DNA of 64,000 nucleotides from a candidate division WWE3 bacterium (GTDB lineage Bacteria > Patescibacteriota > 4484-211 > GCA-002791395), in contig JAAXWF010000001.1 in the NCBI GenBank assembly GCA_013335095.1, positions 86,797 to 150,796 of the forward strand. The letters are read 5' to 3'. Positions within the stretch are counted from its first letter, which is position 1, and every line of letters starts with the position of its first letter. Below the pieces are notes generated by a model. The model searched no databases, had not been told where the DNA came from, and saw nothing but the letters and a program-made list of their open reading frames with translations. Shown here one piece after another: positions 1 through 13,474 of the stretch. The position numbers and the translations under genes are program-made.

Positions 1-470
1 GAATTGAGCAATCGGGGGGAAAGGATTACCAAATATCAATTAAATCAAAAAATATTGAATCGCAAATCAACAACGGCGTTGACCTTTCTACAAGTTCAAT
101 TGGATTCATTGATATCTTTACAGTTCTAGATAGGACACTATTTGCCCGTAATTATTGGAATACACCAACAGATTTTTTCGATCAACTTAAATCATTACAA
201 CTTAATCAACCTGAAGTCTTAGAAAGTGATTTAAGAATTAGATATGCGGAGTATACAAAAACAGCTGAAACGACCTTAAAAGGAAAAACATTTCTTACTT
301 TTTCGGTAAAACCCACCAAACAATCCGCCGTTGGTGCATATCCTAACTATTTTGCATACACTATGAATGGCGATAATTTAATTGTTTTATCGAATCAACA
401 GAATACCGATCTGGAACACAACCTTCCCTTATTCAAACAAATTGCGGCGACGTTTACTTTTGTTGAGTAA
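1..470 (+). CDS. 3' portion of a pilin-like surface protein, a paralog of the next gene (5' end outside window)
   Basis: An open frame runs to the window edge and ends at TAA 468-470. The last ~120 nt are nearly identical to 1099-1223 of the downstream gene, and the translated C-terminus ...NGDNLIVLSNQQNTDLEHNLPLFKQIAATFTFVE matches the downstream protein. Confidence 0.5.
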   Translation, partial: IEQSGGKDYQISIKSKNIESQINNGVDLSTSSIGFIDIFTVLDRTLFARNYWNTPTDFFDQLKSLQLNQPEVLESDLRIRYAEYTKTAETTLKGKTFLTFSVKPTKQSAVGAYPNYFAYTMNGDNLIVLSNQQNTDLEHNLPLFKQIAATFTFVE

Positions 471-497
471 AGGGAAAACCAGACTAACTTATAAATT

Positions 498-1223
498 ATG
501 GCAAATAAAAACGGATTTAGCGCAATCGAGATTTTAGCAATTATTTTAATCATTTCCCTCGTGGCTGGTGGTATTTATGTATTGAACTCCAGTAGAGATA
601 CTGTCATACCCATTCCTACTCAATCAGTAACTACAACAACTCCATCTGCAACAGTCGCTCCGACTGATGAATACAGCAATTGGGAAACATACACCAATCC
701 GACATTCGGATTTTCATTTAAATATCCCAAGGATGAAATATTTATGTTCGAGCAATCAAGTTCTATAGGCGGGAAAGACTATAACATAGCATTAATGTCA
801 AAAGAACTAGATAATAAAATAAAAAATGGAGTAGATTTAGCTTCCGCAGCGATCGCTAACATTGGAATCTATACCTCATTTGAAAGGAATGATATGGCAC
901 TTAAGAATTGGAAAACACCCAATGATTTTTTTGTAGCATTAACGTCGTTACAACTGAATATTCCAACGACGATCAAGAGTGACCTGGAACTTGAACCGAT
1001 ACAATATACAAAACTATCAGAAGATACCCTTAATAGCAGGAAAATCCTAACATTCTCGGCAAGCGTAATACCTGGTACACCGAGTGGTGCTTACTCAAAT
1101 TACTTTGTGTATACGCTGAATGGCGATAATTTAATTGTTTTATCGGACCAACCGAATACCGATCCGGAACACAACCTTTCCTTATTCAAACAAATTGCGG
1201 CAACGTTTACTTTTGTTGAGTAA
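498..1223 (+). CDS. type IV pilin/pseudopilin-like protein (prepilin N-terminal cleavage/methylation motif)
   Basis: The N-terminus MANKNGFSAIEILAIILIISLVAGG fits the class III signal pattern G|FxxxE followed by a hydrophobic helix. It is followed by a Thr/Pro-rich linker and a globular C-terminal domain. It is tandem with a paralog. Confidence 0.65.
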   Translation: MANKNGFSAIEILAIILIISLVAGGIYVLNSSRDTVIPIPTQSVTTTTPSATVAPTDEYSNWETYTNPTFGFSFKYPKDEIFMFEQSSSIGGKDYNIALMSKELDNKIKNGVDLASAAIANIGIYTSFERNDMALKNWKTPNDFFVALTSLQLNIPTTIKSDLELEPIQYTKLSEDTLNSRKILTFSASVIPGTPSGAYSNYFVYTLNGDNLIVLSDQPNTDPEHNLSLFKQIAATFTFVE

Positions 1224-1232
1224 AAAACGAAT

Positions 1233-2063
1233 TCATTCAGATGTATCAGCCAACGCTTTGAGGAAGTCCGTAATACGACCATGCCGATCAAAGTACGCTT
1301 TAACTCCGTCCGATATCACACGTTTAGTTCCGCCATCGATAGGAGTCGTCGACAACCATTCCGGCGTGGTTATGCAGTATTCAACTTCTAATCCTTTTTC
1401 ATAAAACACCCGAATCGCTTGTACCAATCCATAATCTTCTAACTGAGAACGAACAACAGGGCCAAACTTTGTTACCCAAGACTGATCGACGATAAAAAAC
1501 TGTGGATCTGTCGTAATAACCATCACGTCTACATCAGAATCGGACCGAGCTGTGCCACGGGCATGGGACCCGACAACCGCAATACATTCAACATGATCAA
1601 GTTTGCTCGCCCATTGAGTAAAAGCGGCAATAAAATCAGGATACTTATATGGTAAATGAGATTTATTAAACACCCGTCTCCACCTCAACACTAAGCTAAT
1701 AAACGTTACAAAACTAACACCAAGGCAAAATATGTCGACAACACCAAGTTGATCGGTTATCGATAACAGAGAATTACCAAAAGAAAGTACTACAGCACCT
1801 AAATAAATGATCTTAATGTTTCGCTTGATCCCCACATACCCAATCACGTATAAAACTGATTCTAAAAACAACAGCGACTGAATCAATCCATACCCCGATA
1901 AGTTAGGTGAAAGTAGCGCAAAAAGAATCGCAGCAATTAACCAAAACAACGCATTAAACCCGACTAAAAACAACGTTTTGTTTTCTAGAACTGTGCCAAT
2001 TCTTATAAATTGAGACTTCAACATCCCTGTATTATAAAAAATGTAAGACAAATCATGAAACAA
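1233..2063 (-). CDS. membrane-anchored nucleotidyltransferase-domain protein
   Basis: The N-terminal ~130 aa contain several hydrophobic helices. The C-terminal half has a pol-beta-type NTase signature, GSHARGTARSDSDVDVMVI (GS...DxD). An alternative start lies at 2024. Confidence 0.6.
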   Translation of the reverse strand: MFHDLSYIFYNTGMLKSQFIRIGTVLENKTLFLVGFNALFWLIAAILFALLSPNLSGYGLIQSLLFLESVLYVIGYVGIKRNIKIIYLGAVVLSFGNSLLSITDQLGVVDIFCLGVSFVTFISLVLRWRRVFNKSHLPYKYPDFIAAFTQWASKLDHVECIAVVGSHARGTARSDSDVDVMVITTDPQFFIVDQSWVTKFGPVVRSQLEDYGLVQAIRVFYEKGLEVEYCITTPEWLSTTPIDGGTKRVISDGVKAYFDRHGRITDFLKALADTSE

Positions 2064-2642
2064 TACCCTCCACTTTCACGTGAATTTTATGAACAAGAAA
2101 CAGTTGTCGTTGCTCAAATGCTACTAGGCAAAAACCTCGTAAGACAAACTGAGCAAGGCACAATGGTCACAAAAATCGTCGAAACCGAAGCATACTTAGG
2201 CGAAGATGATCCAGCATCACATGCTGCAGTTGGTAAAACATCTCGCACCCAAATATCATGGGGAGCGCCTGGCCACGCGTATGTATATTTAATTTATGGA
2301 ATGTATCATTGCCTGAATGTTGTTACACGGCCAGACGGGATATCAGGTTGTGTCTTAATTCGCGCACTTGAACCGATCATAGGAATAGATGTCATGCAAT
2401 CTTATCGTAGAGGAACATCAATACCTCAACTTACCAACGGTCCAGGAAAGTTGTGTCTGGCATTATCAATAACGCGACATCAAAACGGGGCTGATTTAAC
2501 AAATCCGCAGTCAGGACTATGGATAAGCGACCAACAGAACGAAACGTTTGTAATTGGTACAAGTGCCAGAATCGGTATAACAAAAGCCACCGATAAAGAA
2601 CTGCGTTTTTATATCCAACACAATTCTTTTGTGTCGAAGTAA
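2055..2642 (+). CDS. DNA-3-methyladenine glycosylase (MPG/AAG family)
   Basis: Motifs IVETEAYLGEDDPASHA, GHAYVYLIYGMYHCLNVV, VLIRALEPIIG and GPGKLCLAL are typical of the Mpg/AAG family. The start is chosen at MKQYPP (ATG 2055) rather than the ORF-track 2010. Confidence 0.8.
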   Translation: MKQYPPLSREFYEQETVVVAQMLLGKNLVRQTEQGTMVTKIVETEAYLGEDDPASHAAVGKTSRTQISWGAPGHAYVYLIYGMYHCLNVVTRPDGISGCVLIRALEPIIGIDVMQSYRRGTSIPQLTNGPGKLCLALSITRHQNGADLTNPQSGLWISDQQNETFVIGTSARIGITKATDKELRFYIQHNSFVSK

Positions 2643-2772
2643 TGGAATTTTTAAGTCGAAGTATCGGACTCATTTCGTGAAATAATTGCTTTTTGTTGAA
2701 AAATAAAACGTCAGCCGAGTGTGTCCCTAACACGTCCGAGTCGACCATTAGCGAGGATCGAATATATAGAGA

Positions 2773-3216
2773 TTATAACTTCTTTTCTGTCATAGCTTCT
2801 GGGCTTTTTTTATTTATATGAGGAATTCGAGGTATAACCACAACTGCAGCGGTAACGATTAATCCTATTGCATGGAAATTAAATCCAAATGCCATACCAA
2901 TTGCACCAGAGACCCAAATGCTTGCAGCTGTAGTAAGATTTCGAACATTCGATCCTTCTTTTAAAATCAAACCTGCACCCAAAAAACCAATTCCAGATAC
3001 AATTTGAGCCGCGATCCGAGACTTTGATGCAGGATCTACTACCGAGGATAAAAACGTAAATAGCATCGCTCCGGTTATCACCAGTGTATGGGTACTAATG
3101 CCGGCATCTTTTCCTCGAGCTTCCCTTTCTGAACCAATCGCAAAACCAGCCACAAGACTTAATAGTAAATCCTGAATTAGATGAATCTCATTTTGACCAA
3201 TGAATCCCGATAACAT
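2773..3216 (-). CDS. MgtC/SapB family membrane protein
   Basis: GFAIGSEREARGKDAGISTHTLV ... AAQIVSGIGFLGAGLI ... TTAASIWVSGAIGMAFG match the conserved MgtC core. Confidence 0.8.
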   Translation of the reverse strand: MLSGFIGQNEIHLIQDLLLSLVAGFAIGSEREARGKDAGISTHTLVITGAMLFTFLSSVVDPASKSRIAAQIVSGIGFLGAGLILKEGSNVRNLTTAASIWVSGAIGMAFGFNFHAIGLIVTAAVVVIPRIPHINKKSPEAMTEKKL

Positions 3217-3288
3217 GACCGTATTATACAGAAACAGTAACCGTTAGCAGCGAAAATCAATTTAGAATGAAATATGTCGAAAACAGGT

Positions 3289-3648
3289 TTATGATACAGA
3301 TTTTCGCAGTATCGCTTCCATCTTTTTTCCTTTGGCGAGTTCGTCGATGAGTTTATCGAGATAGCGGATCTCTTGCATAGTTGGTTCTTTGATCTCTTCG
3401 ACACGAATACCACAGATTGTTCCGGTTATAAGAGTTCGAGATGGGTTAAGCTGTGGCGCGTGAGCAAAAAAGGTTTCAAAGTCGGTCTGTTTTTCAAGCA
3501 ATTCATCAAGTTCTTGCTGACTATACCCGGTTAACCAACGGATGATCTCATCGACTTCGGCTTTACGTCGTCCTTTCTTTTCGACTTTGGCTATGTATAA
3601 AGGATATACTCTCGCAACGGACATGGTGTAGATTCGCGGTTTTGTCAT
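3289..3648 (-). CDS. DUF2200 family protein
   Basis: [42 protein letters not shown] resembles the DUF2200 N-terminal consensus. The start is preceded by an AGGAAGG RBS on the minus strand. Confidence 0.6.
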
Positions 3649-3732
3649 AGCACCTTCCTGTTTAGTAATTGTAGCATTTAGCACGTAAATGAGTTGCAAA
3701 GCTGAAAATGACAAGAATTAGCGTTTATTATT

Positions 3733-4236
3733 TTATTCGCCGGCTTTTCTGATGGTTTCGAGGTCGATCTTCTTCATTGGCATAAATGCAGCGGTTACGG
3801 CCTCGGCTTTTTGTGGGCTTTCTCTCATCATTTCATCCAAAATTCTTGGAACGATTTGCCACGTGACTCCAAATTTGTCGGTACACCATCCACATTGTTC
3901 CGCTTCTGGCACCGCTGAAAGTTTTTCCCAGAAAAAATCAATTTCTTCTTGTGTTTCGCACTCAACGATATAGGAAGTCGATCCATTTAGTTGGAATTGT
4001 TCAACCGGACCACCATTAAGAGCCATAAAGCTGATTCCATCGAGTTCGCATTCAGCGGTCAAAACAGATCCTTCGGGTCTACCGGATACTTCTTCGGATG
4101 CTTTAGGCGCTTTGGTGATATCGCCGATCTTAGCGTCATGATTACCTGGCGCTGATTTAAACGTGTCGATATAGTATTGAACGGCCTCTTCGCCATCGTT
4201 GTTGGCAAACCAAATGCAAGTAATAAGTCTACTCAT
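3733..4236 (-). CDS. VOC/glyoxalase-superfamily protein (PhnB / 3-demethylubiquinone-9 methyltransferase-like domain)
   Basis: N-terminal CIWFANNDGEEAVQYY and C-terminal CGWCTDKFGVTWQIVP match this domain family. Confidence 0.7.
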   Translation of the reverse strand: MSRLITCIWFANNDGEEAVQYYIDTFKSAPGNHDAKIGDITKAPKASEEVSGRPEGSVLTAECELDGISFMALNGGPVEQFQLNGSTSYIVECETQEEIDFFWEKLSAVPEAEQCGWCTDKFGVTWQIVPRILDEMMRESPQKAEAVTAAFMPMKKIDLETIRKAGE

Positions 4237-4355
4237 ATTTTTACTGTAACATATTGTGAGATTTTTTTAGTATTAATTTTGTAAGAATACGGACATTTAA
4301 TAATCAACGCATGAGGCTCTAGTCTAAACACCAAGAGAAATAATAAATAGGGATT

Positions 4356-4784
4356 TTATGTAGTTTCAGAATATTCGATGATCCACTCGATACCGTATTT
4401 GTCTCGGAACATACCTGCATACGATCCCCACGGACTTTCTCCGATAGGCCCCTCGACTTCGCCTCCAATTGAGAGTCCATTGAATAGTCGATCGGCCTCT
4501 TCTTTGCTATCGGTATTTACCAATATTTTGCTTCGATTTTCACGCTCATTTACGCGCCCCATGACTTCTGGAACATCATTGGCGATCAACAGAGCACCAT
4601 TACCAATCGGTAAAGCGATATACATTATTTTATCCTCTTCCTTTTCAGGCACCGAGAATTCATCACTCGCGAGATCTTTAAAGCGCACAACCTTGGTAAA
4701 CTCTCCCCCAAAAACGGATTTATAAAACATAAATGCTTCCTGCGCATTACCGTTGAAATTAATCCAAGGATTTAGTGTTGTCAT
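4356..4784 (-). CDS. VOC family protein (PhnB-like)
   Basis: INFNGNAQEAFMFYKSVFGG ... DKYGIEWII fit the same fold family as the adjacent gene; the two are tandem. Confidence 0.65.
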   Translation of the reverse strand: MTTLNPWINFNGNAQEAFMFYKSVFGGEFTKVVRFKDLASDEFSVPEKEEDKIMYIALPIGNGALLIANDVPEVMGRVNERENRSKILVNTDSKEEADRLFNGLSIGGEVEGPIGESPWGSYAGMFRDKYGIEWIIEYSETT

Positions 4785-4810
4785 ACGTTAATCATATCAA
4801 ATTAAAGAAT

Positions 4811-4858
4811 ATACACATGGGTCTGCGTGGTGAACGTAGTTAGAACTTATTTTAGCAC
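4811..4858. repeat. degenerate copy of the tRNA-Asn 3'-end/att-like repeat (distal island boundary)
   Basis: tgggtctgcgtggtgaacgtagttagaacttattttagcac aligns at about 32/40 with 9210-9250, tggctccgcgtgatagacgaagttagaactcttttaagcac. It also shares atacacatgg with 12651-12660. Confidence 0.4.
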
Positions 4859-4975
4859 TTCACCTCAAGTACCCACACAGAGTCATTAGTTGGCAGTTGA
4901 GAGCCGGGTACGTCGTCAAAACTACCTGGTTTTTCCATACATCCGACAATAATTAGTTTATAATTCATACCAGCT

Positions 4976-5443
4976 ATGATAAAAGACTTAACCGCTTCGA
5001 GAACTGACCGACAAAACATTCTTAATAATCATTTCGCTATAGAAATGATCCAAGATAATATCGGATATAGAGGAGTGCTCTTTGAGGGAGAATATCGCTA
5101 TACGAAAAGGCAACTGGCTCACTTCTTTGACGTAAGTATAGCCACTCTAGAACGTTATCTAGAGAAATATGAAAAGGAATTAAGGGAAAATGGGTATGAA
5201 GTGCTCACGGGGAAAAGGCTCAATGAAGCCAAGAAACACCATGTCACCCTCATCGGTGAGGGTGAGAAAAAAGCCCCTTCCTTAGGTGTGTTTAATTTTC
5301 GCGGATTTCTTAATTTAGCCATGTTATTAGTCGAAAGCGATAGAAAAAATAATACAGAACTATCCAGGCTATATCTATATCCCAGACTTAAGACCAAATT
5401 TCGCTCCAATTACCCTGGGAAAAATTTGTTAAAGTTGTTATGA
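4976..5443 (+). CDS. hypothetical protein, first gene of the island cassette (possible DNA-binding, ORF6N/KilA-N-like, low confidence)
   Basis: The segment YRGVLFEGEYRYTKRQLAHFFDVSIATLERYL is reminiscent of phage-associated DNA-binding domains. No strong RBS is present. Confidence 0.4.
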   Translation: MIKDLTASRTDRQNILNNHFAIEMIQDNIGYRGVLFEGEYRYTKRQLAHFFDVSIATLERYLEKYEKELRENGYEVLTGKRLNEAKKHHVTLIGEGEKKAPSLGVFNFRGFLNLAMLLVESDRKNNTELSRLYLYPRLKTKFRSNYPGKNLLKLL

Positions 5444-5462
5444 TTAGGTAGACGGTAAATAT

Positions 5463-6488
5463 ATGAGTACTCATGCAATCAACCAACAAATCAGAGACAG
5501 AATATTTAGGCTTAGTGGTAAAGAATTCCAACAATTAGTGTGGGATATTTTAATAAAAATTTATCCTGACCTTCAGACTCCAAAAATGAATCATGATCTA
5601 GGGAACGATGGTTACAGCATAAGCGAGAAAGCATTTTTTGCAGTTTATGCTCCAGAATTAGCTAAATACGATAATGAAACAACCAGAAAGAAGATTTCCA
5701 ATCCTACCCCTAATCAATCTGAAGAAGTCGGTGATTATGAGAAGTTTATAGCAAACTGGAAAGACAAGTTTGGATTTACCAAGTGGGCTTTCATTACAAA
5801 AGAAAACCTGATGGGAAATCCGCATCAGAAGATTGCCGAACTAAATCAAAACGGCGATGGTGTTGTTAAAGAGCATTGGGGCGTTGAGCAGCTAATTGAA
5901 AAGGTAATGGGGCTAGAGGAGAGTGTAATTCGTGGGCTGTTTGATTTGGAAGCCGATATCACTGTAAACCAGCTAAATCTAGGTATTGTTAATAACGGAA
6001 AGACACATGTCGAAAAACAAGCCCAAATGTATAATGAATACAACAATTACGGCACTAGTGAAGAAGATGAAAATACTGCAGTCGATGAGATTTTTGATTA
6101 CGTGATTTCCCAACTACCACAAACACCAACAATTACTCCAGCTGATGACAGACAAATGCAAGTTAAGGCTAAAATCAAGCTAAATTTCTCTGTCGAAAAA
6201 GAGCAACTCGAAGTCGAGAAATACTTTACCTCTGCTTATACGAAAACAAAATTGATTGAAAATAAACTACAAGCCTTGGACCCAACTATTCAGGGAGATA
6301 TACAACTACACATTTTGCAGAAATATAACGAGTTCAAAAGGAATAGCCAAACGAGTATTGAGATATTAGATAAACTATTCAGCTTTTTTACACCCAAGAA
6401 AAGAGAGAGAAATCCAACCTTTGCAGCAGTAATAAGGGCTTTCGTGCTTTTATATTTTGAAGACTGCTCAATTTTTGAGAAAGAATAA
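5463..6488 (+). CDS. candidate effector of a three-gene cassette (N-terminal restriction-endonuclease/Mrr-like region, alpha-helical C-terminus)
   Basis: FQQLVWDILIKIYPDL...DLGNDGYSISEKAFFAVYAPE resembles an Mrr-type nuclease core. Its stop is 1 nt before the next start. Confidence 0.5.
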   Translation: MSTHAINQQIRDRIFRLSGKEFQQLVWDILIKIYPDLQTPKMNHDLGNDGYSISEKAFFAVYAPELAKYDNETTRKKISNPTPNQSEEVGDYEKFIANWKDKFGFTKWAFITKENLMGNPHQKIAELNQNGDGVVKEHWGVEQLIEKVMGLEESVIRGLFDLEADITVNQLNLGIVNNGKTHVEKQAQMYNEYNNYGTSEEDENTAVDEIFDYVISQLPQTPTITPADDRQMQVKAKIKLNFSVEKEQLEVEKYFTSAYTKTKLIENKLQALDPTIQGDIQLHILQKYNEFKRNSQTSIEILDKLFSFFTPKKRERNPTFAAVIRAFVLLYFEDCSIFEKE

Positions 6489-6489
6489 A

Positions 6490-6714
6490 ATGATCATACC
6501 AACAAAACATGAGGACATCCAGAAAAGCTCTCTAGTTATTGGAGCTGAGGTTATAACTTATCTCAAGAAGAATGGCAGTGAAAATATCGAGAAGCTTTTT
6601 CAGTTATTCAAGAATAAAATTGGAATAGGCCTAAATCAATATCATAATGTTCTTACTGTGTTGTGGTTAGGTAAGATAATTACAATCAGGGAACATAGGA
6701 TTTATCTAGAATAA
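6490..6714 (+). CDS. small middle-component protein (~75 aa) of the three-gene cassette
   Basis: The start ATG 6490 lies 1 nt after the upstream stop, and the stop lies 1 nt before the ATPase start. Its size and position match the middle component of ABC-3C systems. Confidence 0.45.
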   Translation: MIIPTKHEDIQKSSLVIGAEVITYLKKNGSENIEKLFQLFKNKIGIGLNQYHNVLTVLWLGKIITIREHRIYLE

Positions 6715-6715
6715 T

Positions 6716-8476
6716 ATGTTATTAAAAAAATTGTATGCTGAACCAGCAGGATTGTTTGAACTAGTTGAATTCCGTGACGGCATTAACTTTATTTTTGGAG
6801 AGAAAAATGCAACCTCTGACCCTAAAGAATCATTAAACGGGATAGGTAAATCTACCTTGCTGGATCTTGTCGATTTTTGTCTTCTCTCTTCTTACACACA
6901 AAACCATAATCCGAGGCTGTTTTCAGCAAAAGATATCTTGGCAAGCCACCTTATTGTCTTAGAGTTCGAGGTAAATGACACAACCTACATCATAAAAAGG
7001 AGCGTTGAGACACCAAACTCTGTATTTTTTGGTACTACTGATTCCATAAAAGAATACTCGAGAAAAGAATTAGGCTCGATTCTTACAGACCTTGTGTTTA
7101 AAAAGGGAGACTATCCTGGAATTTATTCCGACAAATGGTGGAGAAAGTTAATCAACTTCTACCTCAAAGTTCAAAGTCAAAAGAAAGCGAAGTTTACAGA
7201 GCCAGTTAAATATATTGATGAACTAAGTGTTGCTGAATTAAATCAGTATCTCTTCTTCCTAATGGGATTGGACAACACCCTGGCATATAAAAATTTTGAC
7301 ATACAGTGGAATCTAAAAAAGCGTAATAAGGCGATAATAGAGGTAAAACAAATTGTAGAGGAAACTTATGGACTCAAAGATATCTCTGAAGCATCCAACC
7401 AAGTCGATAAACTAAGCCAAGAAGTTAAAGATATAGAAAACACTATCTCTCAGTTTAAGCTATCTACCCAGTATGAAGACGCTGAGAAACAAGCCAACAT
7501 ATTAACCGCGCAAATCAAAGAATTGTGGTTTCAAAACTTTTCAGACAGAAAGAAAACCGATGCATATAAGGACAGTTTAAAACTGGATGTTGATATTGAC
7601 ATAGCAAAGGTAAAAAGGGTCTATGAAGAGTTTAATCAACTCCTTGCAGATAAGGTGTCCGCAACCCTTGAACAAGCCATCCAGTTTAGAAAAAACCTGG
7701 TTAATTCAAGGAAGGACTTCATTAGTTCTGAGATAGAGTCGCTTGCCAAACAAATTAAAGACAGAGAGAGCAAAATTTCACAACTGGAAACAGACAGAGC
7801 CAAGCTGTTTTCGTTCTTATCCAACAAGGAGGCAATTAGTGATCTTTCAGACGCGTACTTGCATCTTAGTAGGAAAAAGGATCAGCAGGGAGAACTGACC
7901 GGTAAGGTTAGGCTATATAACGACCTACAGAAGGAAAAAGCAGATCTAAAAATTGAAGCAGCAAAAATTGAAAAATCAATGTATGACTTTATTGAAAAGA
8001 ATACGGATTCTGTTTCTGAGTTTAGAACAGTATTTCGAATGGTTTACAACGCTATATATCCAGATACCAAGGATGCTTCAATGTTCTCAATTGACATAAA
8101 GCCCAACACCGATGCAGTTATGAATATTGATATCACTTTTCCTGCAATGTATTCAAAAGGTAAAAATCAAGGAAGGACACTGGTTTTCGATTTAGCGGTT
8201 CTAGTAAACTCAATACAAAAGAGCCTACCTGGACCAAGGTTTGTGGTCCATGATGGCATTTTTGATGGCATGGACAAAGCACATTTTGTTTCACTGTATC
8301 AGTATCTAGAAGACCTTAAGACGAAAATGAGGTTTCAGTATATTGTTACGCTTAACGAAGAAGGTACTCTGAGCGAAAAATTCGGCGACGTGGATGAGCT
8401 AAGTCCTGAAAAAATTAAATCACATGCACTAATAGTGCTAACTCCAACGAGAAAACTCCTTAAAAGTGATTTCTAG
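6716..8476 (+). CDS. SMC-like ABC ATPase with central coiled coil (ABC-3C / Lamassu LmuB-like)
   Basis: The N-terminal P-loop is LNGIGKSTLLDLVDFCL. A coiled-coil region of ~220 aa follows. The C-terminus has Walker B/D-loop FVVHDGIFDGMD and an H-loop-like QYIVTLNEE. Confidence 0.75.
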   Translation: MLLKKLYAEPAGLFELVEFRDGINFIFGEKNATSDPKESLNGIGKSTLLDLVDFCLLSSYTQNHNPRLFSAKDILASHLIVLEFEVNDTTYIIKRSVETPNSVFFGTTDSIKEYSRKELGSILTDLVFKKGDYPGIYSDKWWRKLINFYLKVQSQKKAKFTEPVKYIDELSVAELNQYLFFLMGLDNTLAYKNFDIQWNLKKRNKAIIEVKQIVEETYGLKDISEASNQVDKLSQEVKDIENTISQFKLSTQYEDAEKQANILTAQIKELWFQNFSDRKKTDAYKDSLKLDVDIDIAKVKRVYEEFNQLLADKVSATLEQAIQFRKNLVNSRKDFISSEIESLAKQIKDRESKISQLETDRAKLFSFLSNKEAISDLSDAYLHLSRKKDQQGELTGKVRLYNDLQKEKADLKIEAAKIEKSMYDFIEKNTDSVSEFRTVFRMVYNAIYPDTKDASMFSIDIKPNTDAVMNIDITFPAMYSKGKNQGRTLVFDLAVLVNSIQKSLPGPRFVVHDGIFDGMDKAHFVSLYQYLEDLKTKMRFQYIVTLNEEGTLSEKFGDVDELSPEKIKSHALIVLTPTRKLLKSDF

Positions 8477-8664
8477 TCCCATGTGTTGGTTTGTGTGGCA
8501 CATTCGTGTCTGAAATGGCTAAGTCCACCGTTATTTAGCTTCAAACGGCTCGTTGAGGACGTTGTGAGCCGGTGTGAGCCAATGTCTTGAGTAGCTTCAC
8601 TTGGAGTTCAATAAACGCCACAAAAGACCGGAAAATAAAACGTTTGAGTGTTTTCATAGAAACC

Positions 8665-9156
8665 TTAACGCATGCGGGCCCTAGCGATGGGTCCTTCAAG
8701 CTCGTTGGAGAAGTTGATGAGTTGGCCACCGTTGGTAAAGGCAACACTCAGGCTAGGCTGCTCTGTGGATTCATAGACCTTGATACAAGGAACTCCATTA
8801 TCGTTAAGATATAAGGCAGGAGCGTTCTTGTCTAAGTCCTCACTACAAGTTTCGGTAGGTGGATCTAAATGGACAGTTCTGGCTTCTCCCTTCCAAATGA
8901 GGAAATAATTTACCCTACCACTTCCGCCATCTTTCTTGCCGGTCTCTAGTGTTAATTTTGAGAGATCGATGTTTCCCAAAGCCACTGAATGCTTGGTAAT
9001 AAAGTTACGACCCAACTGCTCGACTACTGCTTGGCTGTATTTGCCACTGTAGTCATATTGCTTTTGATCACTAAACCAACGTGAGCCATCGGCTTTATAT
9101 CCCCAGGTCCCAGGAGTCTCCTCAACCTTTATGATATGGTTTGTTACAGAATTCAC
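8665..9156 (-). CDS. hypothetical protein (island cargo)
   Basis: A 163-aa ORF with normal composition and no recognisable motifs. Confidence 0.5.
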   Translation of the reverse strand: MNSVTNHIIKVEETPGTWGYKADGSRWFSDQKQYDYSGKYSQAVVEQLGRNFITKHSVALGNIDLSKLTLETGKKDGGSGRVNYFLIWKGEARTVHLDPPTETCSEDLDKNAPALYLNDNGVPCIKVYESTEQPSLSVAFTNGGQLINFSNELEGPIARARMR

Positions 9157-9162
9157 AACAAA

Positions 9163-9219
9163 ATACGTAGAAAACTTTTTAATATGTTGGTAAATACAGA
9201 AGATAATAATGGCTCCGCG
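9163..9219. repeat. 57-bp perfect direct repeat copy 1 (contains the last 10 nt of tRNA-Asn plus 47 nt of its 3' flank): att-like junction
   Basis: It is identical to 12678-12734. It ends with tggctccgcg, which is the reverse complement of the tRNA-Asn 3' end including CCA. Confidence 0.8.
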
Positions 9220-9307
9220 TGATAGACGAAGTTAGAACTCTTTTAAGCACCGGCGACCCTAGGGATCGGACTTGAGTTTGATAGTTAGATAGCAGTATAA
9301 TTTTGGT

Positions 9308-9934
9308 ATGCGTTTGAAAGAAAACCGTGGAGACGTTAGCTTAGCCTTAATAATAGTTGTAGTAGTCCTTGTTTTGGGAGCAGGTGCATACTTATTCTTT
9401 AATGGAAGCCTTATAGATGGAAATGAAGTTACTCCTACACCAACAACCACTACCAACACCCCATCTCCCACAGTAAATAGCAATATGAAGCCCTACACTC
9501 AAGCTGGGGTAGATTTTAGTATTCCCACAGATTGGTATATTGCTAGTTTCTCCACAGACTCGCATCTATTTCTATATAGTTTTCCAGAGGATAAATCCAA
9601 TCCTGCACTCACATATGATAGTGTGCATCCCGCCCCTCAAGGAGAAGCTAAATTTGAGATACTAAATCGGTCAAAATCAAGCTCGATTGCTCTCGAAGAA
9701 TGGCTAAAAACTAGGGCGGATAATTATGACTATTTTGGGGATAGAAACTACTCAATATTTGAAAAAATCGAGATCGGAAATACATCAGGTTTCAAATTAG
9801 TTAGTAGCATGTCCAGCCAGCCTTTCTACGTTTTCCAAAATGGCTCAGGAGATAAGTACTTCATAATCTCAGGTAACGAAGATAGCGTATACAAACAGAC
9901 TCTAGAACAGCTTGTTTCTTCTGTAAAAGCTTAA
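9308..9934 (+). CDS. membrane-anchored secreted protein (signal anchor, Thr/Pro linker, globular domain)
   Basis: LALIIVVVVLVLGAGAYLF is followed by TPTPTTTTNTPSPT. The architecture parallels the 498-1223 protein but lacks the pilin G-F-x-x-x-E motif. Confidence 0.55.
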   Translation: MRLKENRGDVSLALIIVVVVLVLGAGAYLFFNGSLIDGNEVTPTPTTTTNTPSPTVNSNMKPYTQAGVDFSIPTDWYIASFSTDSHLFLYSFPEDKSNPALTYDSVHPAPQGEAKFEILNRSKSSSIALEEWLKTRADNYDYFGDRNYSIFEKIEIGNTSGFKLVSSMSSQPFYVFQNGSGDKYFIISGNEDSVYKQTLEQLVSSVKA

Positions 9935-10035
9935 GTAATTAATCTGTATTCTATATCATTGACTATAATCTGTTTATAGGTTAAGAAGATTAAGCGTAGT
10001 AGCAATCGGCATATTCACAATGGAAGAGGTGTATT

Positions 10036-12558
10036 ATGCGGGCATCGTATCGCAGGCGGTGGCAGCTGCTGTTTATACTCATGCTACTTTCTGCATGGGT
10101 ACCTTCAGCTGCACAGGCAACGGATCCTCCATCAAAGAGTTTTCGGTTTCCATGGACTGCTGGAGTGCCGTGGGTCTTCACAGGAGGGCCTCATGTTAGT
10201 GGCACTGGCAACACCATTCGCTCAGCTCTAGATTTTCAACCTAAAAACCAGGATCCCCGGGTACGCGCGGCGGATGGTGGAACTGTACTAAGCACGGATG
10301 ATGGTACTGGCAACATGTACATCGATCATGGAGGCGGATGGGTAACTTTTTACGCGCACATGGACAGCTTTACTGTCTCGGCTGGGAACCACGTCGATCG
10401 AGGCGATGTGGTTGGAGTGGCGGGTAGCAAAGGTACGAATAACATCCATTTGCACTTTGGCGTTCGTTACAACAGTCAGTGGCTAGAAATCGCTGGAGGT
10501 GGGGTCGATTTAGAAGGGTGGACGGTCGTAAAAGAGCCTGCAGTGTACTACGGATACCTCAAGAAAGGTTCCGCTCAGGTCTCAGCATGTTATGACTGTA
10601 CTCCCCTCCCTACTTTTGCGTCTGCGGAGTCGGATCCAGAGCAGGGTTACCCACGGTTAGACAGCACGGTGGAGCTTAGTCCCAATCCCGTAGTGGGGCA
10701 GGCTAACTTTTACCTGAGCTTCTGGCTGAAGAATGGCGGTGGTTCTGATTTTAGTGTCGGCGATGTAGTTATCTCTGGCACTTCGGCCAGCGGAGCGGCA
10801 TGGGATGCAGGTTGGAGTGGCACTCAAGTTATCGCTGCTGGTGATCGTAGATCGTTTCAACTCATCGGCACGGCGTATAACAATGACTTCGGAACGTGGT
10901 TGATTAAGAAGGAGATCAAGGTTAGAAGATCAGGATCTAACTCTTGGTACACGGCCTTACTGGGAAACTTCCCGTTCCCTGCAAGCTTCACTCACTCAGA
11001 TCCGACAGTACCACCTGTTCTAACGACCAACGTCCAGAACAGTCCAAGCAATCTGTGGGCTGGCGGTGAGCTGCAGTTCGCTTTCACTTTACAAAACCCT
11101 GGCTCAAGTGATTTTGATATCGAGGAGATCTTTATCAAAACCACTACTCCAGGCGGCGCGGAGTGGAAGTTTAACGCAACTCCAACTATCATCCCAGCAG
11201 GTCAGAGTCGTGACTTCGTGGCAAAGGCATCACTACCCAACGACTCACATGGCTGGTGGAACGTTACCAAGCGGATCGAGGTGAAAAAGCGTGGTGGTGG
11301 CTGGTACGGCATTGAGCAAGGACCGCATGCTTTCGCAGCAGAGTTCTATGTCAATCCGTACGACAGCACGGGACCAACGGTGTCCTTAACCCATCCCGTG
11401 GACAACTACTTCTACACCTACGAGATTCTGGCTACAGCCACTGCCTCAGATCAACAATCTGGGATCAAGCAGGTTGAGTTTCTCTTTAAGCTTGGTAACA
11501 CCTGGCAGACGCTGTGGGTCGACACGGATGGCACCGACGGATATAGCTTCAACTTCCCAGGGAACAGCTATGGCCCGCAATCTGATCTGTGGATTCTGGC
11601 CTATGCGGTTAACAACTCAGGAGTGCGAACGCAATCAGGTGCGGCGCGGTGGATAACCAACGTGGATACACAGAACCCTTCGGTGAGTGTCTACGGACCA
11701 TCGAGCGGCCAATCGTTTTCGGGTGACTACATCGACGTGTATGCTAATGCCAGCGATAACGTAGGAGTCGATCGTGTTACCTTCTACCTCGGCTATCCAG
11801 GCGGCGGCCCCGTCCCGATAACAGATGCCAATCCTGCTGACGGGTGGTCTGCTCGATTCGATATCCGTGACCTGCCCAATATGACCGGCATGTACGTCAA
11901 TGCCCATGCCTTTGACGCGAAGAACAACCGAGGCGATTCAGGCGCCATTAGCAGCTTGTCAATTGCTCGGTCGTGTCCTTGCTTCGAAGGTATTCGCACA
12001 GGGCAGGGATTTGGCAACACGATTGATGCTGTCTTAAACGTCCCGACCTCAGCAAACTGGGTAAACTTGTACCTGACCCCGCAAGGGCAAGGATTCAGAG
12101 GTGCTGGTGCTGTAAAGGGAGCTGACGGTAAGTGGCGAGCATCATGGAATGTGAGTGATTTGCCGGAAGGTGCAATACTCATGCTGGATGGTTGGATTGG
12201 TTATCCAAATGGCCAACAGCAGACACCAGTACTTACCGGTATGAAGATCGATCGGACAAATCCGACGATGCACCTTACGGGTCCAGGGTCTGGAGCGATC
12301 TTCAACAACACGGTTACGGTGACGGCTTCTGCAGAGGATCCGAACAACGGTAGCGGGGTCGAGAAGGTGGTATTCTACTTCGCATGGCCAGGGAATAGTC
12401 TCCCGGCAATTGTTGACTCGGACGGAAGTAACGGGTGGCAAGCGACCTTTGACACCTCAACGCTCGGACCGGGGAGCTACCGTCTCGATGCGTGGGTATA
12501 CGATAAAGCTGGAAAAGGAAGTCCATCACCTGAGGTCTGGTGGATAACTAAGAACTAG
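10036..12558 (+). CDS. secreted M23/LytM-family metallopeptidase with three C-terminal Ig-like (Big-type) domains
   Basis: The M23 core is HMDSFTVSAGNHVDRGDVVGVAGSKGTNNIHLHFGVRY, preceded by a signal peptide. Three repeated ~90-aa modules each contain ...P(S/T)(V/M)...G...SDxxSG(I/V)(K/E)xVxF(Y/L)... The region is visibly GC-rich. Confidence 0.8.
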   Translation: MRASYRRRWQLLFILMLLSAWVPSAAQATDPPSKSFRFPWTAGVPWVFTGGPHVSGTGNTIRSALDFQPKNQDPRVRAADGGTVLSTDDGTGNMYIDHGGGWVTFYAHMDSFTVSAGNHVDRGDVVGVAGSKGTNNIHLHFGVRYNSQWLEIAGGGVDLEGWTVVKEPAVYYGYLKKGSAQVSACYDCTPLPTFASAESDPEQGYPRLDSTVELSPNPVVGQANFYLSFWLKNGGGSDFSVGDVVISGTSASGAAWDAGWSGTQVIAAGDRRSFQLIGTAYNNDFGTWLIKKEIKVRRSGSNSWYTALLGNFPFPASFTHSDPTVPPVLTTNVQNSPSNLWAGGELQFAFTLQNPGSSDFDIEEIFIKTTTPGGAEWKFNATPTIIPAGQSRDFVAKASLPNDSHGWWNVTKRIEVKKRGGGWYGIEQGPHAFAAEFYVNPYDSTGPTVSLTHPVDNYFYTYEILATATASDQQSGIKQVEFLFKLGNTWQTLWVDTDGTDGYSFNFPGNSYGPQSDLWILAYAVNNSGVRTQSGAARWITNVDTQNPSVSVYGPSSGQSFSGDYIDVYANASDNVGVDRVTFYLGYPGGGPVPITDANPADGWSARFDIRDLPNMTGMYVNAHAFDAKNNRGDSGAISSLSIARSCPCFEGIRTGQGFGNTIDAVLNVPTSANWVNLYLTPQGQGFRGAGAVKGADGKWRASWNVSDLPEGAILMLDGWIGYPNGQQQTPVLTGMKIDRTNPTMHLTGPGSGAIFNNTVTVTASAEDPNNGSGVEKVVFYFAWPGNSLPAIVDSDGSNGWQATFDTSTLGPGSYRLDAWVYDKAGKGSPSPEVWWITKN

Positions 12559-12567
12559 ACCTACAGT

Positions 12568-12602
12568 GCGCTGATGATAGACCCCATCAGCGCTTTTTTA
12601 TT
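12568..12602 (+). terminator. rho-independent terminator after the M23 peptidase gene
   Basis: Hairpin gcgctgatg-atagacccc-catcagcgc followed by ttttttatttc. Confidence 0.6.
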
Positions 12603-12677
12603 TCTTGATAACCAATTTTCAATCATACAATTAAGTTAGTACTATTCAACATACACATGGATGGCAAAAAACTTTAT

Positions 12678-12734
12678 ATACGTAGAAAACTTTTTAATAT
12701 GTTGGTAAATACAGAAGATAATAATGGCTCCGCG
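12678..12734. repeat. 57-bp direct repeat copy 2 (overlaps the 3' end of intact tRNA-Asn)
   Basis: Identical to 9163-9219. Confidence 0.8.
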
Positions 12735-12800
12735 GGTAGGGCTCGAACCTACGACATCCTCGTTAACAGCGAGGCGCTCTACCGACTGAGCTACCGCGGA
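12725..12800 (-). tRNA. tRNA-Asn (anticodon GTT)
   Basis: The reverse complement folds as a cloverleaf: TCCGCGG acceptor stem, anticodon loop CTGTTAA, T-loop GGTTCGAGCC, and a 3' CCA. It closely resembles E. coli tRNA-Asn. Confidence 0.9.
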
Positions 12801-12946
12801 TCATTGAGAACAAAAACACTACTAAGTAGCGTCACGGGTATTGTATCACTCAAATGAAAGGCCTATCAAGGCGCTATGGCTACCAAACAAAAAAGGCCGG
12901 AAGGAAAACCCTCCGGCCCAATATTTACACCTTTTATTTTTTTAAA

Positions 12947-13474
12947 CTAACGCATCTTCTGCCGAATCCACGCGATAACCTCGCCCGGCACATCGCTCTC
13001 GGCATCGCATTCGAACGCATGTCCGAGCAATTCGCGGGCAATCGCAAGATCAAGCTCCATGCCATGCCCGACATCACCAACAACAAGCCCGGTCTCCGGA
13101 TCGCTAAACCGATATGCCGTAACAGTCGCATGGGACAGCCCCTTGGCATTGGGCTCACCCCATGTAATCTCCGGCTGAATCACCAGATACCCACGCATTG
13201 GCAAATAGCCATGCAATACATGGATACCATTGAACACCGGGTTACTGCTCACCCGATCACCAATACGGATTTGGTTGCGATGAACTGCAATCCAGTATTC
13301 GCCGACCATGATATCGGTTCGACGAGCTGCGACACCACGTTCACCACGCACAATCACTTCGCCGTGATGATACGACTGGATTAAGCTAGTCACGTCACCC
13401 GAGTGAAACCCGACAACCCGAAAAGTAGGACCCTCTAGCTGCACAGAATCCTGCGCTCCAACTGACGCGACCAT
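12947..13474 (-). CDS. hypothetical protein (GC-rich block)
   Basis: A 175-aa ORF with protein-like composition. The overlapping plus-strand ORF 12854-13384 is judged to be antisense. Confidence 0.45.
   Translation of the reverse strand: MVASVGAQDSVQLEGPTFRVVGFHSGDVTSLIQSYHHGEVIVRGERGVAARRTDIMVGEYWIAVHRNQIRIGDRVSSNPVFNGIHVLHGYLPMRGYLVIQPEITWGEPNAKGLSHATVTAYRFSDPETGLVVGDVGHGMELDLAIARELLGHAFECDAESDVPGEVIAWIRQKMR

Follow-up and report, generated by a model that had tools for sequence, protein, structure and literature searches.

The window analysed here is a stretch of 64,000 nucleotides (nt) from a candidate division WWE3 bacterium (assembly GCA_013335095.1, contig JAAXWF010000001.1, positions 86,797 to 150,796 of the forward strand), and this report concerns a three-gene cassette within it that probably encodes a defence system of the ABC-three-component (ABC-3C) / Lamassu superfamily. 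The three open reading frames (ORFs) all lie on the + strand, at 5463-6488 (341 residues), 6490-6714 (74 residues) and 6716-8476 (586 residues), and encode in that order an effector-like protein, a small middle protein and a coiled-coil ATP-binding cassette (ABC) ATPase. The region carries the locus tags HGA91_00530 and HGA91_00535 in the annotation of the source contig. A base-by-base reading of both junctions bore out the 1-nt spacers reported in a first-pass annotation made from the sequence alone: the first junction consists of TAA at 6486-6488, A at 6489 and ATG at 6490-6492, and the second of TAA at 6712-6714, T at 6715 and ATG at 6716-6718. The parts of the cassette are as follows.

5349-5462, + strand: putative promoter or 5' leader, conserved; it overlaps the 3' tail of the ORF at 4976-5443, and homology to a second copy of the cassette, on metagenomic contig L068, begins at 5349.
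5463-5942, + strand: N-terminal head of the effector (residues 1-160), PD-(D/E)xK fold with the non-canonical motifs Q23, D45, D49, A60-x-Y62, K77 and D91.
5958-6059, + strand: disordered linker of the effector (residues 166-199), with a predicted local distance difference test score (pLDDT) below 50; an indel-rich alignment block whose length varies across homologs.
6051-6488, + strand: C-terminal helical domain of the effector (residues ~197-341), predicted CTD10-like docking or oligomerisation domain.
6490-6714, + strand: middle component (74 residues), a match to the ABC-3C MC6 family and the predicted equivalent of the adaptor LmuC.
6716-8476, + strand: LmuB-like coiled-coil ABC ATPase of the DUF2326 clade (586 residues), assigned by family and motif matches.
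6836-6856, + strand: Walker A motif of the ATPase, NGIGKST.
7277-8056, + strand: coiled-coil hairpin of the ATPase (residues 188-447).
8240-8275, + strand: Walker B/D-loop of the ATPase (residues 509-520).

A mechanical list of ORFs starts the middle gene at TTG 6457, upstream of the ATG at 6490. The consensus of 52 proteins at the orthologous position begins MLIPTKHEN and, as this matches the N-terminus of the window protein read from the ATG (MIIPTKHED), the gene is taken to start at 6490; the product is then 74 residues long, close to the 75 first estimated. The antisense ORFs within the cassette are short (51-66 residues) and no support was found for any of them. A scan for consensus promoters and terminators returned counts at the level of shuffled sequence and is uninformative on co-transcription.

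The ATPase is the component with the strongest family match. Pfam DUF2326 aligns to it at 74.4 bits (cut-off 28.7), with a weak additional match to AAA_23, and among the PADLOC models it is matched by PDC-M68B (E 6.6e-72, 241 bits) and, over its full length, by LmuB (E 7.4e-15, 53 bits). The NCBIfam models for Rad50 and TrlF remain far below threshold (21-31 bits against cut-offs of 350-1000). It also matches a PHROG phage protein family of unknown function. Motif conservation was assessed in 33 homologs of 45-80% identity. In the Walker A motif N41, G44 and K45 are invariant, and in the Walker B/D-loop FVVHDGIFDGMD the residues H512, D513, G514, F516 and G518 are invariant and D517 and D520 are conserved in at least 90%, the pattern F-x-x-H-D-G-I-F-D-G-x-D being among the invariant motifs of the family. 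The signature is degenerate (SKGKNQGRTL); it and QYIxTLNEEG are likewise conserved, and the H-loop histidine position of DUF2326 ATPases reads T-L-N. The split ABC head of SMC/RecF type that had been recognised in the sequence is therefore present, with both of its nucleotide-binding motifs conserved.

The residue that follows the Walker B aspartate is glycine in 33/33 homologs (H-D-G) and serine (H-D-S) in a 23%-identical homolog on an Agrobacterium plasmid (L070, 4004-5749). The catalytic glutamate of ABC ATPases is therefore absent, and every DUF2326 ATPase examined lacks it. From these motifs the clade is probably able to bind ATP and poor at hydrolysing it, as LmuB is with its E-to-Q change; since E-to-G/S in the one parallels E-to-Q in the other, slow or absent hydrolysis looks like a property common to both. 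The only conserved cysteine is C55, in the head, and the protein therefore has no zinc hook. An AlphaFold2 model of the ATPase (pLDDT 84, predicted template modelling score 0.70) has a Rad50/SMC-type head; between its halves runs a helical hairpin (residues 188-447) that turns near residues 288-307. The coiled coil between the head halves had been anticipated, as the ABC-3C type of ATPase would have it, at a length of about 220 residues; the hairpin is confirmed and the length is corrected to about 260. On structural comparison, one of the checks proposed by the first-pass annotation, the model is nearest to solved LmuB. The family profile of the ATPase found no chain among Protein Data Bank (PDB) sequences at E ≤ 0.01, and no close relative has been solved.

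The 74-residue protein occupies the place of the small middle component between effector and ATPase that is expected in ABC-3C systems. It is matched by Pfam MC6 ('ABC-3C system Middle Component 6') with an E of 1.9e-5 and 25.0 bits (cut-off 27.2). The same family matches 51/52 of the proteins at this position in homologous loci, with a best E of 9.6e-12, and MC7 also matches 15/52. Judged by these profile matches, its membership of MC6 is secure at family level.

The effector has the modular layout expected of ABC-3C and LmuA effectors. Its AlphaFold2 model consists of an alpha/beta N-domain (residues 1-160, pLDDT ~90), the disordered linker and a helical C-terminal half, and in the alignment of its homologs about 160 strongly conserved N-terminal residues are followed by a linker rich in indels and then by either of two C-terminal domains. 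Among 5.8 billion sequences, 29 close homologs were found; the named organisms are all bacteria of the candidate phyla radiation (CPR), and none of the 29 has a Pfam domain. In the C-terminal half, Pfam CTD10 aligns to residues 226-339 (E 0.07, 14 bits against a cut-off of 28.1) and PADLOC PDC-M68A to residues 222-340 only (E 7e-5), the N-terminal head not aligning. When the window effector and its 49 positional homologs were searched at E ≤ 0.01, CTD10 was found in 10 and CTD11 in 3, and BLAST linked all 50 through the C-terminal region despite their different heads. The alignments point clearly to a related, CTD10-like C-terminal domain; CTD10 proper falls short at the Pfam threshold.

The head has a restriction-endonuclease fold, with the alpha-beta-beta-beta-alpha-beta core of that fold, and the helical C-terminal half is seen in the model, so that the description of the protein as having an Mrr/restriction-endonuclease-like N-terminus and a helical C-terminal half was sound. 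The head matches no Pfam family and sequence-based methods detect nothing; an hhalign comparison with an approximate FokI sequence gave an E of 0.55, and Foldseek of the two-domain effector model against the PDB returned no significant match. An exhaustive profile search with the head recovered 368 cluster representatives at E ≤ 1e-3. These include proteins of about 300 residues with CTD10 or CTD11 tails and proteins with DUF2806, and the head also fronts proteins of 800-1300 residues with TPR repeats and a 'PIN-TPR-GreABC' PIN domain (P0181, P0186, P0188, P0199 and others). Because it is found on these different partners, the head is a recurrent N-terminal module of conflict-system proteins. 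Its presence on the large TPR and PIN proteins is also an observation in its own right: an uncatalogued restriction-endonuclease-fold module that also serves conflict systems of another class.

Across 148 divergent representatives the head is conserved at F22 (96%), Q/E23 (99%), D45 (88%), D49 (100%), G50 (97%), Y/H62 (93%), K77 (91%) and D91 (93%), with P64 and N/K113 also conserved. The strand G-D-x-G-N-D-G resembles the D-G-G-I-D motif of Mrr. Strand 3 reads A60-V61-Y62 in the window protein and [Q/A]-x-[Y/H] across the superfamily, where Mrr-type enzymes have (Q/E)-x-K. Of the catalytic D...(D/E)xK motif the first aspartate is thus present (D49) and strand 3 lacks the canonical residues, the placing of strand 3, D49 and Q/E23 on that motif being made by secondary-structure order and hairpin register, not by residue-level superposition. 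Conservation and topology predict that the active site is genuine, if non-canonical, and K77 and D91, in the helices that follow, may compensate for the missing strand-3 motif.

When 185,579 species genomes were scanned for the pattern, 60 loci from 60 genomes were recovered, 53 of them usable. They come from CPR phyla, Methanosarcina, Methanobacteriaceae, Bacteroidota, Ignavibacteria, Planctomycetota, Gammaproteobacteria, Omnitrophica, Nitrospinota and others. In 50/53 the order is effector, middle component, ATPase, with a protein of 171-365 residues, one of about 75 residues and the ATPase tightly packed. The heads of the 50 effectors differ: the window head is found on 7, SMEK_N on 4, a weak HNH_2 on 2 and a weak Mrr_cat_2 on 1, and many have no Pfam match. 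Around the closest homologs of the effector the trio is kept and the flanking genes are unrelated (serine recombinases, a type I restriction helicase subunit, acetyltransferases). Homologs are carried by 80 plasmids, 35 of which are conjugative, and in these plasmid trios the NCBI annotation places an 'ABC-three component system middle component 6' beside a 'DUF2326 domain-containing protein', other homologs being named 'ABC-three component system protein'; on an Agrobacterium Ti plasmid an HNH - MC6 - DUF2326 trio lies next to an AbiEii toxin. The survey of neighbourhoods, which had been suggested as a check, therefore describes a mobile and sporadic operon with head swapping, spread over many phyla and differing flanks, and the conserved core synteny that would have counted against a defence function was not seen.

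Mobility is also evident from the copy on contig L068, where the same cassette stands amid entirely different genes. DNA homology between the two copies extends over 5349-8533 at 91% identity and 8483-9172 at 87%. At a synonymous divergence (dS) of about 0.45, the ratio of nonsynonymous to synonymous divergence (dN/dS) is 0.049 in the effector gene, 0.013 in the middle gene and 0.026 in the ATPase gene, and by this measure strong purifying selection acts on each of the three. The leader (5349-5462, 114 nt) is 93% identical between the copies in spite of this synonymous divergence, and so counts as conserved. The L068 copy also has, between its ATPase gene and the downstream minus-strand gene, a gene for a 283-residue APH-family (aminoglycoside phosphotransferase-like kinase) protein at 11833-12684 that the window lacks.

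Two neighbours of the window cassette were considered as further members and rejected. The ORF at 4976-5443 (+ strand, 155 residues) matches, with residues 2-125, the first 123 of the 338 positions of the PADLOC candidate PDC-M59A (E 1e-38), and its homologs, of 105-263 residues, have only this N-terminal module in common. It is not homologous to the genes upstream of the Nealsonbacteria and L068 copies (loci L001 and L068 compared) and was discarded as a fourth gene. Because its PDC-M59A match ends at about 5350, where homology to L068 begins (5349), its last 30 or so codons may derive from the cassette leader. On the other side, the minus-strand ORF at 8665-9156 (163 residues) is 92% identical to the C-terminal 169 residues of a membrane-anchored protein of 300 residues beside the L068 cassette. 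It has no Pfam match and, among the loci compared, occurs only in this close relative; it was rejected as a system member for that reason. The right boundary of homology, at 9172, cuts this gene and abuts a 57-nt repeat.

The surroundings of the cassette had been described as an AT-rich island bounded by repeats of the tRNA-Asn 3' end. The AT-richness stands, and is modest: the guanine-cytosine (GC) content of the cassette is 0.363 against 0.411 for the window. The bounding holds only in part. The tRNA-Asn gene lies at 12725-12800 on the minus strand, and of the exact 57-nt direct repeat (9163-9219 and 12678-12734) just 10 nt belong to its 3' end, the other 47 nt being downstream flank. The supposed left copy, at 4800-4858, is a degenerate 59-nt match to 9192-9250 (44/59 identical, alignment score 29); a 54-nt query taken from the right-hand repeat, tested separately against window positions 1-9100, gave a score of 24, where 100 shuffles reached at most 15. 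No integrase was noted among the ORFs of the stretch. Pseudo-tRNAs at the repeat junctions were rejected, as ARAGORN and Rfam (E ≤ 1) found only the intact tRNA-Asn. The 3.5-kb segment between the exact repeats (9220-12677) has a GC content of 0.488, encodes a 208-residue protein and an 840-residue M23 peptidase with Big_7 domains, and is likely to be a horizontally acquired insertion without an integrase. The arrangement as a whole looks like two decayed insertions beside a tRNA gene. Other neighbours are genes of the glyoxalase family, DUF2200, MgtC, a DNA glycosylase and a nucleotidyltransferase, mostly ordinary accessory genes. Elsewhere in the window a direct repeat of 140 nt and 88% identity (332-471 and 1085-1224) has one copy upstream of a 241-residue ORF (498-1223) and the other across the 3' end of that ORF, whose N-terminus resembles a type IV pilin-like signal; the repeat suggests a tandem duplication of related genes or gene ends. 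At 12882-12964 on the minus strand Rfam weakly matches the leader of ribosomal protein L20 (28.7 bits against a gathering threshold of 58.7, E 0.02), probably by chance.

The profile searches proposed at the outset, against Pfam and PADLOC, thus returned DUF2326, MC6 and a weak CTD10, and PDC-M68A, PDC-M68B and the LmuB model, and the ABC-3C / Lamassu-family reading holds for each of the three proteins, the effector joining its restriction-endonuclease-fold head to a CTD10-like, PDC-M68A-like tail. In published work ABC-3C is counted within the Lamassu superfamily. Those Lamassu-family systems that have been tested protect against phage and need all three components, and a Lamassu-Mrr system used in a liquid-culture assay protected by abortive infection. 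In solved Lamassu complexes a dimer of LmuB together with LmuC sequesters the C-terminal oligomerisation domain of an LmuA monomer, and DNA ends trigger the release of LmuA, which when free is an active tetrameric nuclease (structure preprints).

This scheme was adopted as the best explanation because the parts of the cassette map onto it one to one. We consider it probable that the cassette is a functional anti-phage or anti-plasmid system of the DUF2326-ATPase / MC6 / CTD10-like type (PADLOC candidate PDC-M68) acting by effector sequestration and abortive infection, and from the correspondence we infer how complex formation, trigger, nuclease activity and defence phenotype would be connected. 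A dimer of the ATPase and the 74-residue protein would bind the helical C-terminal domain of the effector and hold it as an inactive monomer. The ATPase heads and middle protein would meet aberrant DNA, for example free ends or hairpins, that arises while phages or plasmids replicate, and ATP-dependent engagement of the heads would open the complex and release the effector. Released effectors would self-associate through their C-terminal domains, bringing the restriction-endonuclease-fold heads together as an active nuclease that would degrade nucleic acid indiscriminately and so abort the infection. Departures from the solved scheme that may matter are the missing zinc hook in the docking region, the E-to-G change in Walker B and the non-canonical nuclease head.

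Several points weigh against this interpretation. Next to nothing is known of the phages and plasmids of the host, a CPR bacterium. No experimental test of the DUF2326 / MC6 clade was found in the literature searched, and PADLOC lists the clade only as a candidate. As the apex of the ATPase has no cysteines and no zinc hook, the site at which LmuA and LmuC dock in the solved complexes must be built differently here. Nuclease activity of the head is not assured, since its strand 3 lacks the canonical (D/E)xK. The window copy of MC6 lies 2.2 bits below the Pfam cut-off and that of CTD10 far below, and the neighbourhood is not a classical defence island.

The altered strand 3 also gives room for a reading in which the architecture is the same and the head is not a DNA endonuclease: it could be a dead restriction-endonuclease fold that binds or senses nucleic acid, or could follow a different chemistry, as a metal-independent RNase or a tyrosine-dependent nuclease. 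In either case killing or interference would not proceed as in canonical Lamassu. An active site is favoured over a dead scaffold because six polar positions (D49, Q/E23, D91, K77, D45 and Y/H62) are near-universal in the 148 representatives; D49 and Q/E23 stand, by secondary-structure order and not by superposition, at the expected metal-binding positions of an Mrr-like fold, and in both ABC-3C and TPR and PIN proteins the head takes the N-terminal effector position where enzymes are the rule. This reading as a whole appears unlikely. A wider proposal, which we hold to be doubtful while giving it slightly more weight, takes the head as an uncatalogued enzyme family derived from restriction endonucleases, with the catalytic lysine replaced by Tyr/His and a new constellation of Q/E23, D45, D49, Y/H62, K77 and D91, possibly with non-standard chemistry (RNA cleavage or a covalent tyrosine intermediate), and deployed alike in ABC-3C systems and in giant TPR and PIN proteins; the DUF2326 clade would in addition be a Lamassu-like sensor without zinc hook or Walker B catalytic residue, sequestering and releasing its effector in a structurally distinct way.

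The cassette might instead mainly serve the mobile DNA that carries it, through competition between elements, plasmid exclusion or post-segregational addiction, and not the defence of the host against phage. It moves between unrelated contexts, as the window and L068 copies demonstrate, its homologs are found on the 80 plasmids and in a phage protein family, and the Vibrio cholerae Lamassu system DdmABC was first identified as a plasmid-elimination module. The window cassette, however, is chromosomal, with no integrase, transfer or replication genes near it, and tested Lamassu-family systems do protect against phage; the two roles are moreover not exclusive, and as an alternative to host defence we think this improbable. 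Of all the explanations weighed, the one that seems most remote is that the ATPase is of a housekeeping type for DNA repair or chromosome maintenance (Rad50/SbcC, RecN or RecF) with two accessory proteins. It shares the Rad50/SMC-type head, but the patchy distribution across unrelated phyla, the non-syntenic flanks and the swapped upstream partners speak against it, as do the lack of an Mre11/SbcD-type partner and the missing Walker B glutamate. The grouping with RecF, RecN or SbcC families that would have argued for it was not found, given NCBIfam scores of 21-31 bits against cut-offs of 350-1000 and a model nearest to LmuB, and it was rejected on distribution, context and fold ranking.

The preferred reading, a Lamassu-superfamily defence system, extends the ABC-3C / Lamassu superfamily into a CPR bacterium (WWE3), a group whose phage immunity is little known. 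With a cassette that is small (3.1 kb) and strongly constrained by purifying selection, it also gives a means of testing the DUF2326 / MC6 clade, whose members are common among Bacteroidota, CPR bacteria, archaea and plasmids. The earlier suggestion that the effector might be a new variant, or the whole trio an undescribed relative, is thereby divided: the head is uncovered by protein-family databases, and the trio is not undescribed. The system type is already covered by Pfam (DUF2326, MC6, CTD10), the NCBI pipeline and PADLOC PDC-M68, and restriction-endonuclease-fold heads are known in the family. What is new is the host lineage, a head family with an altered motif that the databases do not cover, and a clade for which no experimental work was found in the literature. 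Should the head prove active, the catalogue of effectors would gain a nuclease family, and the annotation of several hundred 'hypothetical' proteins would improve. The current picture of how such systems work is unchanged by these findings.

ABC-3C systems, as reportedly set out by Krishnan, Burroughs, Iyer and Aravind in NAR in 2020, are said to combine an effector bearing a variable head and one of the domains CTD1-CTD12, a middle component (MC1-MC8/9) and a coiled-coil ABC ATPase. The type II Lamassu systems compared here, DdmABC of V. cholerae and LmuACB of Salmonella enterica, have the order LmuA-LmuC-LmuB. LmuB in these systems has Pfam DUF3732, a zinc hook and an E-to-Q change in Walker B, whereas the window ATPase has DUF2326, no zinc-hook cysteines and E-to-G; it therefore lacks the features by which PADLOC-type Lamassu LmuB is defined (DUF3732, usually a zinc hook, and Walker B E-to-Q), and its PADLOC score is far lower for LmuB (53 bits) than for PDC-M68B (241 bits). 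Neither the 341-residue nor the 74-residue protein matches PADLOC LmuA or LmuC at E ≤ 1. The LmuA proteins studied carry a Cap4/DUF4297 nuclease and CTD7, and the window effector differs in having a head of another restriction-endonuclease-fold family and a CTD10-like tail. Lamassu systems with Mrr and PDDEXK heads exist (Millman et al. 2022). The head has no detectable sequence similarity to Mrr-like and type IIS domains (the FokI cleavage domain, N.BspD6I / R.BspD6I, AF1548); strand 3 of those domains is (D/E/Q)-x-K, in contrast to the [Q/A]-x-[Y/H] of the window family with its conserved K77 and D91 in the following helices.

The closest counterpart is the ABC-3C type with DUF2326, MC6 and CTD10/CTD11, which corresponds to the PADLOC candidate PDC-M68. 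The window cassette differs from it in that the effector head falls outside the PDC-M68A profile alignment (residues 222-340 only) and outside Pfam. It agrees with it in the order of effector, small middle protein and ATPase, in an ATPase matched by DUF2326 and PDC-M68B and in a middle protein matched by MC6; the effector tail is matched by PDC-M68A and resembles CTD10, below the Pfam threshold.

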